Sequence record: LR745708
Origin: Escherichia phage T7
Reading direction: 5' to 3' (one strand)
Length of the DNA: 40,606 nucleotides
Each line of letters opens with the position of its first letter. Positions within the stretch are counted from its first letter, which is position 1. Of this stretch, positions 24,006 to 40,606 are shown piece after piece. The notes under the pieces were generated by a model that was given only the letters and a program-made list of their open reading frames with translations, was not told the DNA's origin and made no database searches. A program made the position numbers and the translations under genes.

Positions 24006-24160
24006 TGCTGGGGGTGGCCTCAACGGTCGCTGCTAGTCCCGAAGAGGCGAGTGTTACTTCAACAGAAGAAACCTTAACGCCAGCACAGGAGGCCGCACGC
24101 ACCCGCGCTGCTAACAAAGCCCGAAAGGAAGCTGAGTTGGCTGCTGCCACCGCTGAGTAA
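22968..24160 (+). CDS. 10B: Gene 10B minor capsid protein (-1 frameshift extension of 10A)
   Basis: Shifting to the -1 frame at the GGTTTTC region (~23988-23993) gives ...FQSGVMLGVASTVAASPEEASVTSTEETLTPAQEAARTRAANKARKEAELAAATAE, ending at TAA 24158-24160. Confidence 0.8.
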
Positions 24161-33500: not shown

Positions 33501-34552
33501 TAGGGACCTTGAAGTATTCAACACAGGAACTGGCTGCTCGCTCTCCGTGGACTAAGCTACTGAACGGAACCACTAACTACCTTCTGGATGCTGCGCGTCA
33601 AGGTATGCTTGGGGATGTTATTAGTGCCACCCTAACAGGTAAGACTACCCGCTGGGAGAAAGAAGGCTTCCTTCGTGGTGCCTCCGTAACTCCTGAGCAG
33701 ATGGCTGGCATCAAGTCTCTCATCAAGGAACATATGGTACGCGGTGAGGACGGGAAGTTTACCGTTAAGGACAAGCAAGCGTTCTCTATGGACCCACGGG
33801 CTATGGACTTATGGAGACTGGCTGACAAGGTAGCTGATGAGGCAATGCTGCGTCCACATAAGGTGTCCTTACAGGATTCCCATGCGTTCGGAGCACTAGG
33901 TAAGATGGTTATGCAGTTTAAGTCTTTCACTATCAAGTCCCTTAACTCTAAGTTCCTGCGAACCTTCTATGATGGATACAAGAACAACCGAGCGATTGAC
34001 GCTGCGCTGAGCATCATCACCTCTATGGGTCTCGCTGGTGGTTTCTATGCTATGGCTGCACACGTCAAAGCATACGCTCTGCCTAAGGAGAAACGTAAGG
34101 AGTACTTGGAGCGTGCACTGGACCCAACCATGATTGCCCACGCTGCGTTATCTCGTAGTTCTCAATTGGGTGCTCCTTTGGCTATGGTTGACCTAGTTGG
34201 TGGTGTTTTAGGGTTCGAGTCCTCCAAGATGGCTCGCTCTACGATTCTACCTAAGGACACCGTGAAGGAACGTGACCCAAACAAACCGTACACCTCTAGA
34301 GAGGTAATGGGCGCTATGGGTTCAAACCTTCTGGAACAGATGCCTTCGGCTGGCTTTGTGGCTAACGTAGGGGCTACCTTAATGAATGCTGCTGGCGTGG
34401 TCAACTCACCTAATAAAGCAACCGAGCAGGACTTCATGACTGGTCTTATGAACTCCACAAAAGAGTTAGTACCGAACGACCCATTGACTCAACAGCTTGT
34501 GTTGAAGATTTATGAGGCGAACGGTGTTAACTTGAGGGAGCGTAGGAAATAA
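30596..34552 (+). CDS. 16: Gene 16 internal virion protein D (N-terminal lytic transglycosylase domain)
   Basis: 1318-aa ORF; N-terminus has an SLT-like motif (...VAWTESRF...GPLGMMQF...). Confidence 0.95.
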   Translation: MDKYDKNVPSDYDGLFQKAADANGVSYDLLRKVAWTESRFVPTAKSKTGPLGMMQFTKATAKALGLRVTDGPDDDRLNPELAINAAAKQLAGLVGKFDGDELKAALAYNQGEGRLGNPQLEAYSKGDFASISEEGRNYMRNLLDVAKSPMAGQLETFGGITPKGKGIPAEVGLAGIGHKQKVTQELPESTSFDVKGIEQEATAKPFAKDFWETHGETLDEYNSRSTFFGFKNAAEAELSNSVAGMAFRAGRLDNGFDVFKDTITPTRWNSHIWTPEELEKIRTEVKNPAYINVVTGGSPENLDDLIKLANENFENDSRAAEAGLGAKLSAGIIGAGVDPLSYVPMVGVTGKGFKLINKALVVGAESAALNVASEGLRTSVAGGDADYAGAALGGFVFGAGMSAISDAVAAGLKRSKPEAEFDNEFIGPMMRLEARETARNANSADLSRMNTENMKFEGEHNGVPYEDLPTERGAVVLHDGSVLSASNPINPKTLKEFSEVDPEKAARGIKLAGFTEIGLKTLGSDDADIRRVAIDLVRSPTGMQSGASGKFGATASDIHERLHGTDQRTYNDLYKAMSDAMKDPEFSTGGAKMSREETRYTIYRRAALAIERPELQKALTPSERIVMDIIKRHFDTKRELMENPAIFGNTKAVSIFPESRHKGTYVPHVYDRHAKALMIQRYGAEGLQEGIARSWMNSYVSRPEVKARVDEMLKELHGVKEVTPEMVEKYAMDKAYGISHSDQFTNSSIIEENIEGLVGIENNSFLEARNLFDSDLSITMPDGQQFSVNDLRDFDMFRIMPAYDRRVNGDIAIMGSTGKTTKELKDEILALKAKAEGDGKKTGEVHALMDTVKILTGRARRNQDTVWETSLRAINDLGFFAKNAYMGAQNITEIAGMIVTGNVRALGHGIPILRDTLYKSKPVSAKELKELHASLFGKEVDQLIRPKRADIVQRLREATDTGPAVANIVGTLKYSTQELAARSPWTKLLNGTTNYLLDAARQGMLGDVISATLTGKTTRWEKEGFLRGASVTPEQMAGIKSLIKEHMVRGEDGKFTVKDKQAFSMDPRAMDLWRLADKVADEAMLRPHKVSLQDSHAFGALGKMVMQFKSFTIKSLNSKFLRTFYDGYKNNRAIDAALSIITSMGLAGGFYAMAAHVKAYALPKEKRKEYLERALDPTMIAHAALSRSSQLGAPLAMVDLVGGVLGFESSKMARSTILPKDTVKERDPNKPYTSREVMGAMGSNLLEQMPSAGFVANVGATLMNAAGVVNSPNKATEQDFMTGLMNSTKELVPNDPLTQQLVLKIYEANGVNLRERRK

Positions 34553-34572
34553 TACGACTCACTATAGGGAGA
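34550..34572 (+). promoter_or_regulatory. T7 promoter phi17
   Basis: taatacgactcactatagggaga overlapping the gene 16 stop. Confidence 0.9.
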
Positions 34573-34624
34573 GGCGAAATAATCTTCTCCCTGTAGTCTC
34601 TTAGATTTACTTTAAGGAGGTCAA

Positions 34625-36682
34625 ATGGCTAACGTAATTAAAACCGTTTTGACTTACCAGTTAGATGGCTCCAATCGTGATTTTAATATCCCGTTTGAGT
34701 ATCTAGCCCGTAAGTTCGTAGTGGTAACTCTTATTGGTGTAGACCGAAAGGTCCTTACGATTAATACAGACTATCGCTTTGCTACACGTACTACTATCTC
34801 TCTGACAAAGGCTTGGGGTCCAGCCGATGGCTACACGACCATCGAGTTACGTCGAGTAACCTCCACTACCGACCGATTGGTTGACTTTACGGATGGTTCA
34901 ATCCTCCGCGCGTATGACCTTAACGTCGCTCAGATTCAAACGATGCACGTAGCGGAAGAGGCCCGTGACCTCACTACGGATACTATCGGTGTCAATAACG
35001 ATGGTCACTTGGATGCTCGTGGTCGTCGAATTGTGAACCTAGCGAACGCCGTGGATGACCGCGATGCTGTTCCGTTTGGTCAACTAAAGACCATGAACCA
35101 GAACTCATGGCAAGCACGTAATGAAGCCTTACAGTTCCGTAATGAGGCTGAGACTTTCAGAAACCAAGCGGAGGGCTTTAAGAACGAGTCCAGTACCAAC
35201 GCTACGAACACAAAGCAGTGGCGCGATGAGACCAAGGGTTTCCGAGACGAAGCCAAGCGGTTCAAGAATACGGCTGGTCAATACGCTACATCTGCTGGGA
35301 ACTCTGCTTCCGCTGCGCATCAATCTGAGGTAAACGCTGAGAACTCTGCCACAGCATCCGCTAACTCTGCTCATTTGGCAGAACAGCAAGCAGACCGTGC
35401 GGAACGTGAGGCAGACAAGCTGGAAAATTACAATGGATTGGCTGGTGCAATTGATAAGGTAGATGGAACCAATGTGTACTGGAAAGGAAATATTCACGCT
35501 AACGGGCGCCTTTACATGACCACAAACGGTTTTGACTGTGGCCAGTATCAACAGTTCTTTGGTGGTGTCACTAATCGTTACTCTGTCATGGAGTGGGGAG
35601 ATGAGAACGGATGGCTGATGTATGTTCAACGTAGAGAGTGGACAACAGCGATAGGCGGTAACATCCAGTTAGTAGTAAACGGACAGATCATCACCCAAGG
35701 TGGAGCCATGACCGGTCAGCTAAAATTGCAGAATGGGCATGTTCTTCAATTAGAGTCCGCATCCGACAAGGCGCACTATATTCTATCTAAAGATGGTAAC
35801 AGGAATAACTGGTACATTGGTAGAGGGTCAGATAACAACAATGACTGTACCTTCCACTCCTATGTACATGGTACGACCTTAACACTCAAGCAGGACTATG
35901 CAGTAGTTAACAAACACTTCCACGTAGGTCAGGCCGTTGTGGCCACTGATGGTAATATTCAAGGTACTAAGTGGGGAGGTAAATGGCTGGATGCTTACCT
36001 ACGTGACAGCTTCGTTGCGAAGAACGAATACAGCCTGTGGGACATCAAGTTTCGCCCGGCTGCGCTCGACCCGCGCGGCATGACGCTGGTTGCCGGCGCG
36101 TTTTGGGCAGACATCTATCTGCTAGGCGTCAACCACCTGACCGATGGCACCAGCAAATACAACGTGACAATTGCAGATGGTAGTGCATCACCTAAGAAAT
36201 CTACCAAGTTCGGTGGAGACGGCAGCGCGGCCTACAGTGACGGAGCTTGGTACAACTTCGCTGAGGTCATGACTCATCACGGTAAGCGCCTGCCTAACTA
36301 CAACGAATTCCAGGCGCTGGCTTTCGGCACGACCGAGGCTACGTCCAGCGGCGGCACCGACGTGCCCACCACCGGCGTGAACGGCACGGGCGCAACGAGT
36401 GCGTGGAACATCTTCACGTCCAAGTGGGGCGTTGTGCAGGCGTCCGGTTGCTTGTGGACGTGGGGTAACGAGTTCGGCGGCGTGAATGGCGCATCCGAAT
36501 ACACGGCCAACACTGGCGGCAGAGGATCGGTGTACGCCCAGCCCGCTGCTGCGCTATTCGGCGGCGCCTGGAACGGCACGTCGCTCTCGGGTTCTCGCGC
36601 TGCGCTCTGGTACAGCGGGCCGTCGTTCTCGTTCGCGTTCTTCGGGGCGCGCGGCGTCTGTGACCACCTGATTCTTGAGTAG
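34625..36682 (+). CDS. 17: Chimeric tail-fibre protein: T7 gp17 residues 1-466 fused to a heterologous ~219-aa C-terminal receptor-binding domain (Mtd-like C-type-lectin fold with DGR variable region)
   Basis: 685-aa ORF against 553 aa for native gp17 as I recall. Translation is T7 gp17 up to ...GGKWLDAYLRDSFVAK (codon 466, nt 36020-36022), then diverges into GC-rich sequence NEYSLWDIKFRPAALDPRGMTLVAGAFWADIYLLG...GARGVCDHLILE. Confidence 0.9.
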   Translation: MANVIKTVLTYQLDGSNRDFNIPFEYLARKFVVVTLIGVDRKVLTINTDYRFATRTTISLTKAWGPADGYTTIELRRVTSTTDRLVDFTDGSILRAYDLNVAQIQTMHVAEEARDLTTDTIGVNNDGHLDARGRRIVNLANAVDDRDAVPFGQLKTMNQNSWQARNEALQFRNEAETFRNQAEGFKNESSTNATNTKQWRDETKGFRDEAKRFKNTAGQYATSAGNSASAAHQSEVNAENSATASANSAHLAEQQADRAEREADKLENYNGLAGAIDKVDGTNVYWKGNIHANGRLYMTTNGFDCGQYQQFFGGVTNRYSVMEWGDENGWLMYVQRREWTTAIGGNIQLVVNGQIITQGGAMTGQLKLQNGHVLQLESASDKAHYILSKDGNRNNWYIGRGSDNNNDCTFHSYVHGTTLTLKQDYAVVNKHFHVGQAVVATDGNIQGTKWGGKWLDAYLRDSFVAKNEYSLWDIKFRPAALDPRGMTLVAGAFWADIYLLGVNHLTDGTSKYNVTIADGSASPKKSTKFGGDGSAAYSDGAWYNFAEVMTHHGKRLPNYNEFQALAFGTTEATSSGGTDVPTTGVNGTGATSAWNIFTSKWGVVQASGCLWTWGNEFGGVNGASEYTANTGGRGSVYAQPAAALFGGAWNGTSLSGSRAALWYSGPSFSFAFFGARGVCDHLILE
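36023..36682 (+). other. Heterologous graft within gene 17 (GC-rich; Mtd-like domain)
   Basis: Abrupt rise in G+C and change of codon usage relative to flanking T7 sequence; the encoded C-terminus ...AALFGGAWNGTSLSGSRAALWYSGPSFSFAFFGARGVCDHLILE resembles, from memory, the BPP-1 Mtd variable-region end. Confidence 0.65.
36544..36680 (+). other. Putative DGR variable region (VR) with IMH-like 3' end
   Basis: ~135-bp stretch that is strongly adenine-poor, with many NNC codons (gcc, aac, ggc, ctc, tac, agc, ttc x4), ending in a GC-only run (ggggcgcgcggcg) and tctgtgaccacctgattcttgag. Confidence 0.6.
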
Positions 36683-36701
36683 CGGGGCCGAAAGGCCCCG
36701 C
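36682..36701 (+). promoter_or_regulatory. GC-rich hairpin with GAAA loop straddling the gene 17 stop (DGR target-recognition hairpin/cruciform-like)
   Basis: gcggggcc-GAAA-ggccccgc: a perfect 8-bp stem with a 4-nt GAAA loop, directly readable. Confidence 0.7.
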
Positions 36702-36723
36702 CAAGGCAACCGTACTCGAACCA

Positions 36724-36760
36724 CTAGCCCGCTCTTATCGGGCGGCTAGGGGTTTTTTGT
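36724..36760 (+). terminator. Putative terminator-like element (imperfect hairpin + G4T6)
   Basis: ctagcccgctcttatcgggcggctag forms an imperfect stem, followed by gggttttttg, which mimics the tail of Tphi (gaggggttttttg). Confidence 0.4.
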
Positions 36761-36784
36761 GATTTACTTTAAGGAGGTCAAATG
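36761..36784 (+). promoter_or_regulatory. Duplicated gene 17 ribosome-binding site driving trxA
   Basis: gatttactttaaggaggtcaaATG at 36761-36784 is identical to 34604-34627, the native gene 17 RBS and start. Confidence 0.9.
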
Positions 36785-37111
36785 AGCGATAAAATCATTC
36801 ACCTGACCGATGACTCTTTTGATACCGACGTGCTGAAAGCTGATGGTGCAATTCTGGTTGATTTCTGGGCAGAGTGGTGCGGCCCTTGCAAAATGATCGC
36901 TCCAATCCTGGACGAAATTGCGGACGAATATCAGGGTAAGCTGACTGTGGCCAAACTGAACATTGACCAGAACCCTGGCACCGCACCGAAATACGGTATC
37001 CGTGGCATCCCAACTCTGCTGCTGTTCAAAAACGGTGAAGTGGCAGCAACCAAAGTAGGCGCTCTGTCTAAAGGCCAACTGAAAGAGTTCCTGGACGCCA
37101 ACCTGGCTTAA
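36782..37111 (+). CDS. trxA: Thioredoxin 1 (E. coli TrxA, identical protein), inserted into the phage genome
   Basis: 109-aa product [109 protein letters not shown] with the CGPC active site; not a T7 gene. Confidence 0.97.
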
Positions 37112-37172
37112 TGATTGGTAAATCACAAGGAAAGACGTGTAGTCCACGGATGGACTCTCAAGGAGGTACAAG

Positions 37173-37376
37173 GTGCTATCATTAGACTTTAACAACGAAT
37201 TGATTAAGGCTGCTCCAATTGTTGGGACGGGTGTAGCAGATGTTAGTGCTCGACTGTTCTTTGGGTTAAGCCTTAACGAATGGTTCTACGTTGCTGCTAT
37301 CGCCTACACAGTGGTTCAGATTGGTGCCAAGGTAGTCGATAAGATGATTGACTGGAAGAAAGCCAATAAGGAGTGA
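37173..37376 (+). CDS. 17.5: Gene 17.5 holin
   Basis: GTG at 37173 after AGGAGG; 67 aa with a hydrophobic core, MLSLDFNNELIKAAPIVGTGVADVSARLFFGL... Confidence 0.85.
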   Translation: MLSLDFNNELIKAAPIVGTGVADVSARLFFGLSLNEWFYVAAIAYTVVQIGAKVVDKMIDWKKANKE

Positions 37377-37381
37377 TATGT

Positions 37382-37651
37382 ATGGAAAAGGATAAGAGCC
37401 TTATTACATTCTTAGAGATGTTGGACACTGCGATGGCTCAGCGTATGCTTGCGGACCTTTCGGACCATGAGCGTCGCTCTCCGCAACTCTATAATGCTAT
37501 TAACAAACTGTTAGACCGCCACAAGTTCCAGATTGGTAAGTTGCAGCCGGATGTTCACATCTTAGGTGGCCTTGCTGGTGCTCTTGAAGAGTACAAAGAG
37601 AAAGTCGGTGATAACGGTCTTACGGATGATGATATTTACACATTACAGTGA
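37382..37651 (+). CDS. 18: Gene 18 terminase small subunit
   Basis: ATG at 37382; 89 aa MEKDKSLITFLEMLDTAMAQRM...; ORF-track start 37373 is an upstream extension. Confidence 0.85.
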   Translation: MEKDKSLITFLEMLDTAMAQRMLADLSDHERRSPQLYNAINKLLDRHKFQIGKLQPDVHILGGLAGALEEYKEKVGDNGLTDDDIYTLQ

Positions 37652-37692
37652 TATACTCAAGGCCACTACAGATAGTGGTCTTTATGGATGTC
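37652..37692 (+). promoter_or_regulatory. RNase III processing site R18.5
   Basis: tatactcaaggccactacagatagtggtctttatggatg hairpin motif. Confidence 0.5.
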
Positions 37693-37745
37693 ATTGTCTA
37701 TACGAGATGCTCCTACGTGAAATCTGAAAGTTAACGGGAGGCATT

Positions 37746-38177
37746 ATGCTAGAATTTTTACGTAAGCTAATCCCTTGGGTTCTCGCTGGGATGCTATTCG
37801 GGTTAGGATGGCATCTAGGGTCAGACTCAATGGACGCTAAATGGAAACAGGAGGTACACAATGAGTACGTTAAGAGAGTTGAGGCTGCGAAGAGCACTCA
37901 AAGAGCAATCGATGCGGTATCTGCTAAGTATCAAGAAGACCTTGCCGCGCTGGAAGGGAGCACTGATAGGATTATTTCTGATTTGCGTAGCGACAATAAG
38001 CGGTTGCGCGTCAGAGTCAAAACTACCGGAACCTCCGATGGTCAGTGTGGATTCGAGCCTGATGGTCGAGCCGAACTTGACGACCGAGATGCTAAACGTA
38101 TTCTCGCAGTGACCCAGAAGGGTGACGCATGGATTCGTGCGTTACAGGATACTATTCGTGAACTGCAACGTAAGTAG
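37746..38177 (+). CDS. 18.5: Gene 18.5 spanin (Rz-like, inner-membrane component)
   Basis: 143 aa with an N-terminal transmembrane segment (LIPWVLAGMLFGLGWHLG). Confidence 0.85.
   Translation: MLEFLRKLIPWVLAGMLFGLGWHLGSDSMDAKWKQEVHNEYVKRVEAAKSTQRAIDAVSAKYQEDLAALEGSTDRIISDLRSDNKRLRVRVKTTGTSDGQCGFEPDGRAELDDRDAKRILAVTQKGDAWIRALQDTIRELQRK
37861..38112 (+). CDS. 18.7: Gene 18.7 spanin (Rz1-like), embedded in 18.5 in another frame
   Basis: 83-aa ORF nested inside 18.5; contains a lipobox-like LICVATISGCAS. Confidence 0.7.
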   Translation: MSTLRELRLRRALKEQSMRYLLSIKKTLPRWKGALIGLFLICVATISGCASESKLPEPPMVSVDSSLMVEPNLTTEMLNVFSQ

Positions 38178-38198
38178 GAAATCAAGTAAGGAGGCAAT

Positions 38199-39959
38199 GT
38201 GTCTACTCAATCCAATCGTAATGCGCTCGTAGTGGCGCAACTGAAAGGAGACTTCGTGGCGTTCCTATTCGTCTTATGGAAGGCGCTAAACCTACCGGTG
38301 CCCACTAAGTGTCAGATTGACATGGCTAAGGTGCTGGCGAATGGAGACAACAAGAAGTTCATCTTACAGGCTTTCCGTGGTATCGGTAAGTCGTTCATCA
38401 CATGTGCGTTCGTTGTGTGGTCCTTATGGAGAGACCCTCAGTTGAAGATACTTATCGTATCAGCCTCTAAGGAGCGTGCAGACGCTAACTCCATCTTTAT
38501 TAAGAACATCATTGACCTGCTGCCATTCCTATCTGAGTTAAAGCCAAGACCCGGACAGCGTGACTCGGTAATCAGCTTTGATGTAGGCCCAGCCAATCCT
38601 GACCACTCTCCTAGTGTGAAATCAGTAGGTATCACTGGTCAGTTAACTGGTAGCCGTGCTGACATTATCATTGCGGATGACGTTGAGATTCCGTCTAACA
38701 GCGCAACTATGGGTGCCCGTGAGAAGCTATGGACTCTGGTTCAGGAGTTCGCTGCGTTACTTAAACCGCTGCCTTCCTCTCGCGTTATCTACCTTGGTAC
38801 ACCTCAGACAGAGATGACTCTCTATAAGGAACTTGAGGATAACCGTGGGTACACAACCATTATCTGGCCTGCTCTGTACCCAAGGACACGTGAAGAGAAC
38901 CTCTATTACTCACAGCGTCTTGCTCCTATGTTACGCGCTGAGTACGATGAGAACCCTGAGGCACTTGCTGGGACTCCAACAGACCCAGTGCGCTTTGACC
39001 GTGATGACCTGCGCGAGCGTGAGTTGGAATACGGTAAGGCTGGCTTTACGCTACAGTTCATGCTTAACCCTAACCTTAGTGATGCCGAGAAGTACCCGCT
39101 GAGGCTTCGTGACGCTATCGTAGCGGCCTTAGACTTAGAGAAGGCCCCAATGCATTACCAGTGGCTTCCGAACCGTCAGAACATCATTGAGGACCTTCCT
39201 AACGTTGGCCTTAAGGGTGATGACCTGCATACGTACCACGATTGTTCCAACAACTCAGGTCAGTACCAACAGAAGATTCTGGTCATTGACCCTAGTGGTC
39301 GCGGTAAGGACGAAACAGGTTACGCTGTGCTGTACACACTGAACGGTTACATCTACCTTATGGAAGCTGGAGGTTTCCGTGATGGCTACTCCGATAAGAC
39401 CCTTGAGTTACTCGCTAAGAAGGCAAAGCAATGGGGAGTCCAGACGGTTGTCTACGAGAGTAACTTCGGTGACGGTATGTTCGGTAAGGTATTCAGTCCT
39501 ATCCTTCTTAAACACCACAACTGTGCGATGGAAGAGATTCGTGCCCGTGGTATGAAAGAGATGCGTATTTGCGATACCCTTGAGCCAGTCATGCAGACTC
39601 ACCGCCTTGTAATTCGTGATGAGGTCATTAGGGCCGACTACCAGTCCGCTCGTGACGTAGACGGTAAGCATGACGTTAAGTACTCGTTGTTCTACCAGAT
39701 GACCCGTATCACTCGTGAGAAAGGCGCTCTGGCTCATGATGACCGATTGGATGCCCTTGCGTTAGGCATTGAGTATCTCCGTGAGTCCATGCAGTTGGAT
39801 TCCGTTAAGGTCGAGGGTGAAGTACTTGCTGACTTCCTTGAGGAACACATGATGCGTCCTACGGTTGCTGCTACGCATATCATTGAGATGTCTGTGGGAG
39901 GAGTTGATGTGTACTCTGAGGACGATGAGGGTTACGGTACGTCTTTCATTGAGTGGTGA
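38199..39959 (+). CDS. 19: Gene 19 terminase large subunit
   Basis: GTG at 38199 after AGGAGG; 586 aa [19 protein letters not shown]... Confidence 0.95.
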
Positions 39960-40040
39960 TTTATGCATTAGGACTGCATAGGGATGCACTATAGACCACG
40001 GATGGTCAGTTCTTTAAGTTACTGAAAAGACACGATAAAT

Positions 40041-40063
40041 TAATACGACTCACTATAGGGAGA
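40041..40063 (+). promoter_or_regulatory. T7 promoter phiOR
   Basis: taatacgactcactatagggaga. Confidence 0.9.
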
Positions 40064-40217
40064 GGAGGGACGAAAGGTTACTATATAGATACTGAATGAA
40101 TACTTATAGAGTGCATAAAGTATGCATAATGGTGTACCTAGAGTGACCTCTAAGAATGGTGATTATATTGTATTAGTATCACCTTAACTTAAGGACCAAC
40201 ATAAAGGGAGGAGACTC

Positions 40218-40367
40218 ATGTTCCGCTTATTGTTGAACCTACTGCGGCATAGAGTCACCTACCGATTTCTTGTGGTACTTTGTGCTGCCCTTGGGTACGC
40301 ATCTCTTACTGGAGACCTCAGTTCACTGGAGTCTGTCGTTTGCTCTATACTCACTTGTAGCGATTAG
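40218..40367 (+). CDS. 19.5: Gene 19.5
   Basis: ATG at 40218 after GGGAGGAG; 49 aa MFRLLLNLLRHRVTYRFLVVLCAALG... Confidence 0.7.
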   Translation: MFRLLLNLLRHRVTYRFLVVLCAALGYASLTGDLSSLESVVCSILTCSD

Positions 40368-40439
40368 GGTCTTCCTGACCGACTGATGGCTCACCGAGGG
40401 ATTCAGCGGTATGATTGCATCACACCACTTCATCCCTAT

Positions 40440-40606
40440 AGAGTCAAGTCCTAAGGTATACCCATAAAGAGCCTCTAATGGTCTATCCTAAGGTCTATAC
40501 CTAAAGATAGGCCATCCTATCAGTGTCACCTAAAGAGGGTCTTAGAGAGGGCCTATGGAGTTCCTATAGGGTCCTTTAAAATATACCATAAAAATCTGAG
40601 TGACTA
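40440..40606. repeat. Right-end short CCTAAAG-like repeat region, ending immediately before the right terminal repeat
   Basis: cctaaggt..., acctaaagataggcc, cacctaaagaggg repeats; window ends ...aaatctgagtgacta, the sequence I recall directly preceding the terminal repeat. Confidence 0.6.

Follow-up and report, generated by a model that had tools for sequence, protein, structure and literature searches.

How does a T7 genome come to carry a tail-fibre gene of 685 codons, and what does the unfamiliar end of that fibre bring with it? The window, by which is meant the whole 40,606-nucleotide stretch of record LR745708, listed as Escherichia phage T7, contains gene 17 as an open reading frame of 685 aa, compared with 553 aa in the wild type (V01146, 34624..36285). 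A preliminary description, made from the letters of the sequence, had remarked on this excess length, placed a switch after codon 466 to about 219 unrelated residues, and likened the C-terminus to the end of the variable region of Mtd, the receptor-binding protein of Bordetella phage BPP-1, which is diversified by a diversity-generating retroelement (DGR). Each of these points was borne out, as set out below, with feature coordinates collected in the table.

Alignment with V01146 showed T7 identity up to base 36022, picking up again at 37114, with V01146 36022-36284 deleted. Bases 34625-36022 were identical to T7 gene 17, the final T7 codon being K466 (...DSFVAK). In a sequence search of the PDB, residues 1-468 matched the T7 gp17 structure 7boz (E = 0) and residues 368-468 matched 4a0t, while the Pfam family PF20744 covered residues 371-464 (E = 1.7e-40). 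Residues 163-370 we take to be the fibre shaft, from established knowledge of gp17. Matches to gp17 structures ended at residue 468, and the native tip domain (gp17 467-553), responsible for recognition of the E. coli surface, was absent. The fusion is in frame and its junction falls at a domain boundary; GC content shifts abruptly at 36023, being 0.479 over the gp17 part and 0.618 over the part that follows.

That part (bases 36023-36682) encodes 219 aa and a stop codon, and its residues, 467-685 of the chimera, were 100% identical to residues 163-381 of BPP-1 Mtd, so that chance resemblance of the tip to Mtd is not an issue. No Pfam family was found over residues 467-685; the Mtd part was found instead by the PDB sequence search, in which residues 466-685 matched Mtd-P1 rather than the native gp17 tip (1yu0, E = 1.9e-145; best matches 1yu0 and 2iou). 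Both halves of the fusion are thus 100% identical to solved structures. The Mtd part presumably has the C-type-lectin fold, an assignment taken over from the literature on 1YU0. The C-terminus of the open reading frame is the true Mtd C-terminus, and a tblastn search of the window with Mtd residues 1-162 gave no match. Compared directly with BPP-1, the 660 nt of DNA differ at 25 sites, each a synonymous G/C-to-A/T change, and one pair of these removes a NotI site present in native mtd; the identity of 94.3% returned by a search of phage records is too low, a piece of the BPP-1 TR having been averaged in.

Coordinates of features at the chimeric gene 17 locus, and of the strain-identifying variant in gene 12 (positions in the window).
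Feature	Position	Strand	Remarks
Strain-identifying SNV, gp12 K12R	24877 (G)	+	V01146 24876 A>G
T7 promoter phi17	34550..34574	+	Exact T7 promoter consensus; V01146 annotates phi17 at the homologous site
Chimeric gene 17	34625..36682	+	685 codons, TAG stop; protein exactly CAA6800711.1
gp17 residues 1-162, N-terminal tail-attachment domain	34625..35110	+	PF03906 Phage_T7_tail, E = 4e-74; as in T7
gp17 residues 163-370, presumed fibre shaft	35111..35734	+	Identical to T7; within the 7boz match
gp17 residues 371-466, trimerisation ('pyramid') domain and short connector	35735..36022	+	PF20744, 4a0t
Mtd residues 163-170 (NEYSLWDI), eight linker codons	36023..36046	+	24-nt gap in alignment with LR745707
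Mtd residues 171-381, receptor-binding domain with VR-encoded face (variant P1)	36047..36679	+	100% identity to BPP-1
DGR variable region VR1	36544..36677	+	Exact 134-bp copy of BPP-1 reference VR1
(GC)14 element	36643..36656	+	Sequence CGGGGCGCGCGGCG
21-bp IMH (initiation of mutagenic homing), VR version	36657..36677	+	Five positions differ from the IMH* of TR
Hairpin/cruciform, 8-bp GC stem, GAAA loop	36682..36701	.	Same as BPP-1
Last BPP-1-derived bases	36702..36712	+	BPP-1 identity stops at 36712, +35 after VR
Designed stem-loop and T-run, 48 bp, terminator-like	36713..36760	+	In Figure S7 g-block; absent from LR745707
Second gene-17 ribosome-binding region, before trxA	36761..36781	+	24-bp exact direct repeat of 34604-34627
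Recoded E. coli trxA (thioredoxin), positive-selection marker	36782..37111	+	Pfam Thioredoxin, E = 8.4e-35

The chimera is a laboratory construct published in 2020, neither natural nor new. The window is almost certainly the genome of phAG_3, a T7 derivative engineered by marker-selected homologous recombination that carries a DGR target only, on a non-infective fibre (Grigonyte et al. 2020, Viruses 12:193, PMC7077284; project PRJEB35760, fibre protein CAA6800711.1). The combination of gp17 1-466 with Mtd 163-381 matches the phAG_3 row (row 3) of Table S4 of that paper, where the fragment is given as Mtd 163-382, and Table S6 gives phAG_3 a single SNV, gp12 K12R, which is found here. Window positions 36023-36757 aligned with the printed mtd g-block over 736 positions, with one substitution and single-base gaps; because such gaps would be frameshifts, they are best read as drop-outs of printed text. 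The substitution, a synonymous T at base 36400, sets the window apart from the printed g-block and, like the ribosome-binding site before trxA, counts against the identification; in substance nothing separates the window from phAG_3, of which the junction, g-block, trxA and gp12 K12R are all shared. The trxA gene matches the trxA g-block and is only 84.1% identical at the DNA level to native trxA in 5426/5426 E. coli genomes; as a marker it allows recombinants to grow on E. coli delta-trxA (Grigonyte et al. 2020, PMC7077284). Elsewhere, sequence identity to laboratory T7 is 99.99%. That the construct is synthetic is shown by its recoding, by its trxA marker and by its agreement with a g-block and design table in print.

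The last 87 codons of gp17 (467-553, the receptor-binding tip) were swapped for a synthetic, partly recoded fragment encoding Mtd 163-381, after which come 35 bp of native BPP-1 sequence, the 48-bp stem-loop, the copy of the gene-17 ribosome-binding site and recoded trxA. The fusion retains the tail-attachment, shaft and trimerisation domains, and the variable-region face of Mtd-P1 replaces the LPS-binding tip. The earlier suspicion of a synthetic host-range architecture therefore stands, on the recoding, trxA and the g-block, although the architecture it thought unusual had already been published as phAG_3. As a published construct with a negative functional result it matters little as a discovery, but the sequence should carry a synthetic flag, lest it be taken for natural mosaicism between coliphage and Bordetella phage, and the chimera serves as a clean positive control in that an engineered swap of a receptor-binding domain was detectable from raw sequence.

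Besides coding sequence, the insert holds the elements of a DGR target. VR1 lies at the extreme Mtd C-terminus, ending 5 nt short of the end of the open reading frame, and the variable codons, of which Mtd has twelve (PMC3567102), correspond to chimera residues 648, 650-652, 654, 661, 663, 664, 668, 670, 672 and 673. Compared with the BPP-1 TR, VR1 differs upstream of the IMH at 17 positions, all 17 of them adenines in the TR, and at five further IMH/IMH* positions. The (GC)14 element and 21-bp IMH are those defined by Guo et al. 2011 (PMC3240598), who found that efficient retrohoming requires the hairpin (loop consensus GRNA) and mapped the 3′ requirement within 35 bp, later 24 bp, downstream of VR. 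Here the hairpin starts on the G of the TAG stop codon, and the element folds at -12.2 kcal/mol (z = -4.2). The cis elements VR1, (GC)14, IMH and hairpin are therefore all kept, as published requirements for a target would have it.

Whether this layout was intended is a separate matter. The insert may be a deliberate minimal DGR recipient site in a lytic T7 chassis, cut at +35, a reading of the sequence arrangement to which we would give an even chance; the layout would then probably be meant to receive mutagenic homing supplied in trans. Evidence from a sister construct suggests as much: LR745709, which has a Yep-phi tip, keeps past its own stop codon 43 bp from 3 bp before (GC)14, and the hairpin to +35, and the Gibson primer junction of that construct sits exactly there. 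That it should keep just the DGR cis elements after its stop codon suggests a deliberate DGR-recipient design. The competing view, that IMH and hairpin simply came along when the 3′ end of mtd was copied, is a serious one, if somewhat on the improbable side. It draws on the silence of Grigonyte et al. 2020, in whose paper and supplement DGR, IMH, homing and hairpin are nowhere mentioned, and on the sole aim stated there, expansion of host range by means of the Mtd domain. Carry-over does not readily explain why BPP-1 sequence ends at +35 after VR, the first 3′ boundary of Guo et al. 2011, nor why the Yep-phi construct, with no need of Mtd coding sequence, keeps (GC)14, IMH and hairpin to that same point. 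The same layout, moreover, served Guo et al. in retargeting the DGR to a heterologous gene (PMC3240598).

In the VR-KanS construct of that study (Guo et al. 2011, PMC3240598) the target gene lies directly upstream of the BPP-1 IMH and hairpin, with the DGR in trans; the T7-Mtd insert, and the Yep-phi sister especially, share its logic, a likeness confined to sequence layout. In Bordetella, with a donor plasmid, VR-KanS has been demonstrated to function, whereas the T7 constructs are known by their layout. If deliberate recipient design is the right reading, supply of avd-TR-brt from a plasmid could allow the T7 fibre tip to be hypermutated in vivo, and the arrangement of IMH and hairpin would represent an early, unreported attempt at a DGR-addressable T7 host range, an aim since pursued by other routes. 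One of these, DGRec on lambda GpJ (bioRxiv 10.1101/2025.03.24.644984), likewise uses the BPP-1 RT and Avd to diversify the receptor-binding protein of a coliphage so that host range can evolve, but does so by recombineering, with explicitly no need of an IMH, and mutates the phage's own domain without importing the Mtd scaffold.

Presence of the full target site (VR, (GC)14, IMH and hairpin) might also be taken to indicate a lytic coliphage whose own functional DGR mutates the tip of its fibre, but this is very improbable and is refuted for the present genome, which has no TR, avd or brt. With TR as query, the window gave a match to VR alone, and a repeat finder gave no second copy; tblastn with Brt and Avd returned from the window only short chance segments (best E = 0.38 and 1.2, respectively). 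VR1 was unchanged relative to the BPP-1 reference in consensus assemblies. Since TR is not in the genome, the pattern of differences at TR adenines was inherited rather than generated here. The genome is thus a DGR target without the trans-acting TR, Avd and Brt, and is unable to diversify itself; a helper plasmid with avd-TR-brt would make a version in trans possible. Of the DGR-type variable domain that the preliminary description had seen in a T7 fibre, domain and variable region are accordingly present, and the genome holds a target with no DGR.

Phages commonly swap tail-fibre tips, and an in-frame junction at a domain boundary is what might be seen if horizontal exchange had given a T7-like coliphage the Mtd-type receptor-binding domain of a BPP-1-like phage. 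A natural recombinant of this kind has nevertheless a negligible probability: its backbone would hardly be 99.99% laboratory T7, its protein would hardly reproduce Mtd down to hypervariable VR1 while the DNA had undergone 25 synonymous GC-lowering changes with loss of NotI, and recoded E. coli trxA would not be expected to follow the insert. The match to the printed g-block refutes it. An artefact of assembly or contamination, joining reads of T7 and BPP-1, is just as far from credible, having the abrupt GC shift at 36023 as its sole point and against it a fusion in frame at the designed codon, a left junction common to sister constructs, two read assemblies agreeing base for base (the independent Logan assembly of run ERR3804821 has the same open reading frame and is identical over 5 kb), and plaque PCR in which 100% of screened plaques were scored as mutants (Grigonyte et al. 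2020).

On E. coli, no Mtd fusion was infective by itself; wild-type fibre given in trans restored infection, and phAG_3 was propagated with wild-type gp17 so supplied (Grigonyte et al. 2020, PMC7077284); that paper makes no mention of tests on Bordetella. Non-infectivity probably reflects the missing E. coli-recognising tip, together with the new domain's known ligand, Bordetella pertactin, not being on E. coli, and misassembly of the hybrid trimer may be a further cause. The only chimera reported to infect E. coli was phPM (Grigonyte et al. 2020, PMC7077284), which is LR745709.1, the T7-Yep-phi gp17 construct. It has the same backbone, junction after gp17 466 and trxA, and keeps (GC)14, IMH and hairpin, but the donor of its tip was a related T7-like Yersinia phage, and its DGR cis elements lie past the stop codon, not inside the open reading frame.

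The T7-Mtd sister, LR745707.1, which carries the phAG_4 SNVs, is 99.9% identical overall and shares the backbone, left junction, recoded mtd, IMH, hairpin and trxA. Its Mtd part starts from K171 and is eight codons shorter (677 aa); it also differs in being without the 48-bp stem-loop, in having other background SNVs, and in having C at the homologue of base 36400. Annotation of LR745707 and LR745709 reads 'Chimaeric tail fibre created from fusion of...'. In BPP-1 itself (NC_005357; 1YU0, 2IOU), the Mtd/DGR system has the same residues 163-381, VR1, (GC)14, IMH and hairpin; unlike BPP-1, the present genome is without Mtd 1-162, TR, avd and brt, has 25 synonymous recodings, and belongs to a lytic coliphage whose fibre is unrelated.

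Expression of the chimeric gene is driven by phi17, with trxA reached through read-through. The 48-bp element between the two genes (36713..36760) folds at -11.3 kcal/mol (z = -4.0), although a terminator and promoter scan of 36500-37300 called nothing, this stem-loop included. Searches for its source gave no match in phage records, E. coli genomes, PLSDB plasmids or GTDB genomes (exact pattern), and it bears just a loose likeness to the 3′ end of T7 Tphi. The ribosome-binding site of trxA is that of gene 17, whereas the plasmid table states B0034.

The gene 17 ORF (34625..36682, + strand, in the ORF list of the window) encodes 685 aa, compared with 553 aa in wild-type T7 (V01146, 34624..36285), as stated in the preliminary description. 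The switch it had placed after codon 466 was located at exactly that position: the T7 match ends at window 36022, so that the breakpoint lies directly after gp17 codon 466 (...DSFVAK). In the whole-genome comparison with V01146, T7 1–36021 corresponded to window 1–36022 at 99.992% identity, the gp17 part included, and T7 36285–39777 to window 37114–40606 at 100%. The stretch between, 36023–37113, is without T7 counterpart and stands in place of T7 36022–36284. T7 sequence restarts at the final base of the former gene 17 stop codon, followed by genes 17.5, 18, 18.5 and 19 in normal order. GC content is 0.479 in the gp17 part versus 0.618 in the new part.

The C-terminus, ascribed beforehand to Mtd of Bordetella phage BPP-1, does derive from that protein: in direct comparison with NC_005357, residues 467–685 were Mtd 163–381 at 100% protein identity, with an intact copy of the variable region VR1 (see table). 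In a DNA search of phage records, 36023–36780 matched BPP-1, BMP-1, BIP-1 and vB_BbrP_003 over mtd and the variable region, and also two ‘Escherichia phage T7’ records, LR745707 and LR745709. Among solved structures, residues 1–468 corresponded to T7 gp17 (7boz and others) and 466–685 to Mtd, best to the P1 variant (1yu0, 2iou; E = 1.9e-145); Pfam recognised the gp17 N-terminal domain at 1–162 and the trimerisation domain at 371–464, and no family in the Mtd part. The mtd part differs from BPP-1 at 25/660 nt, all synonymous and each G/C to A/T, one pair of changes (CGC to AGA) removing the sole NotI site in that stretch of mtd. Because protein identity reaches into the hypervariable region and synonymous recoding is systematic, the insert carries the hallmark of a synthetic gene fragment modelled on the reference sequence of BPP-1. 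At window 36400 there is a T (AGT, Ser) where the g-block described below, native BPP-1 and LR745707 have C; this synonymous, window-specific change is also present in an independent Logan assembly, and is absent from the published SNV table, the reference for which is wild-type T7.

LR745707 is annotated with a ‘Chimaeric tail fibre’ fusing T7 gp17 amino acids 1–466 to BPP1 Mtd, and LR745709 with a chimaeric tail fibre containing part of that of Yep-phi. The constructs come from Grigonyte et al. 2020 (Viruses 12:193, PMC7077284; project PRJEB35760), who tested CRISPR selection against selection by the trxA/cmk markers as ways of engineering T7, and obtained eight tail-fibre mutants by trxA selection. 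Four agreeing lines identify the window as their phAG_3. Table S4 gives phAG_3 as gp17 1–466 plus Mtd 163–382; its only SNV in Table S6, 24876 A>G (K>R), is exactly that carried at window 24877 (gp12 K12R), LR745707 having the phAG_4 SNVs instead. Figure S7 prints the mtd g-block, which contains the recoded bases, the hairpin and a 48-bp element. It aligned to window 36023–36757 with a single substitution and gaps of one base at five places; as the gaps would be frameshifts in the g-block, they must reflect bases lost from the PDF text. Lastly, the 685-aa protein is deposited exactly as CAA6800711.1/UniRef100_A0A679KM36, and the independent Logan assembly of run ERR3804821 equals the window over 5058 bp covering the entire locus. 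The window is thus identical, in all that could be tested, to a published engineered phage. Its closest relatives are the sister constructs, and its donor parts T7 gp17 and BPP-1 Mtd.

Features of the insert and its flanks in window coordinates
Feature	Position	Remarks
VR1	36544-36677	exact 134-bp copy of BPP-1 VR1
(GC)14	36643-36656	DGR target element
IMH, 21 bp	36657-36677	DGR target element
Hairpin, 8-bp stem / GAAA loop	36682-36701	-12.2 kcal/mol, z = -4.2
BPP-1-derived sequence past VR, 35 bp	to 36712	identity to BPP-1
Stem-loop + T-run, 48 bp	36713-36760	between BPP-1 hairpin and trxA RBS
Second gene 17 ribosome-binding region	36761-36784	24-bp exact direct repeat of 34604-34627
trxA (E. 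coli thioredoxin)	36782-37111	ORF, thioredoxin match

The 48-bp stem-loop element is missing from LR745707, and searches of GTDB genomes and of phage, plasmid and E. coli collections gave no match to it; at the 3′ end (AGGGGTTTTTTG) it is similar to T7 Tphi, and trxA expression must rely on read-through past it. The 24-bp repeat is the gene 17 RBS and start copied upstream of trxA, where the paper's plasmid table gives RBS B0034. Were the two copies to recombine, the chimeric gene would be lost and trxA would take its position, a predicted product similar to the paper's phAG_7. With only 84.1% DNA identity to native trxA across all 5426 E. coli genomes, the marker has been recoded, presumably to prevent recombination with host sequences.

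The window has everything in cis that a target for a diversity-generating retroelement (DGR) needs according to Guo et al. 2011 (PMC3240598), homology to the template repeat (TR) included. As regards intent rather than function, deliberate design of a DGR recipient is somewhat more likely than passive carry-over of IMH and hairpin. Carry-over is favoured by the silence of PMC7077284 and its supplement on DGR, IMH, homing and hairpin, but the BPP-1 part stops at +35 after VR, the 3′ limit first reported for a DGR target (+24 after fine mapping; Guo et al. 2011, PMC3240598). More telling against it, LR745709 keeps the cis elements despite having no Mtd coding sequence: right after its own stop (LR745709.1, piece 2782–2854) come the BPP-1 (GC)14, IMH, mtd stop and hairpin, the retained sequence being 43 bp from 3 bp upstream of (GC)14 together with the hairpin out to +35. 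The Gibson primer junction of the Yep-phi construct sits exactly there (PMC7077284 supplement), and the arrangement is that with which Guo et al. 2011 retargeted the DGR to a heterologous gene (PMC3240598). In concept, the construct lies between classical T7 fibre swaps and that retargeting; it is older than the recombineering-based use of a DGR to diversify lambda GpJ, which works without IMH. T7 endonuclease I, which cuts the hairpin/cruciform in supercoiled DNA (Guo et al. 2011, PMC3240598), is encoded by gene 3 of the same genome that holds the hairpin.

The fusion retains the gp17 tail-attachment and trimerisation parts and has, in place of the gp17 tip domain, the receptor-binding domain of the P1 variant of Mtd. 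Phage-borne trxA allowed selection of the recombinants on E. coli delta-trxA; all Mtd fusions were non-infective on E. coli and propagated only with plasmid-supplied wild-type gp17, the Yep-phi fusion being the sole infective one (PMC7077284). Bordetella pertactin is the ligand of wild-type (P1) Mtd, according to the Mtd-P1 literature. Receptor mismatch would be the most economical explanation of non-infectivity: the tip engaging the E. coli surface is gone from the fibre, and its replacement would be directed at pertactin, which E. coli is not known to make. The hybrid trimer may also fail to assemble, which would add to the effect.

A self-contained DGR-bearing T7 is excluded, TR, avd and brt being absent from the window (tblastn best E of 0.38 or worse, chance hits); the TR query matched VR only, VR has no repeat copy elsewhere in the window, and VR1 is unmutated, from which the phage is, as far as its genome can tell, incapable of diversifying its own fibre. 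An assembly artefact is excluded, since two assemblies agree, the junction lies in frame where it was designed, and sister constructs share its left side. Recoding, the trxA marker and the g-block match exclude a natural recombinant and vindicate the synthetic host-range architecture proposed in the preliminary description, the observation and interpretation of which both stand.

Relative to V01146, the window has an extra A at 1896, common to AY264774, and T for C at 24158 in the gene 10B extension, common to LR745707; both are laboratory T7 stock background, unrelated to the engineering. The window ends at T7 39777, the right-hand 160-bp terminal repeat (compare window 1–160) being missing, which is the usual terminal-repeat collapse of short-read assemblies. 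In LR745707.1 (piece 1126–3159, with phAG_4 SNVs), gp17 K466 is fused to Mtd K171, giving 677 aa; since Table S4 lists Mtd 170–382 for phAG_4 and 171–382 for phAG_1 (PMC7077284), these entries are either off by one or have their labels swapped.
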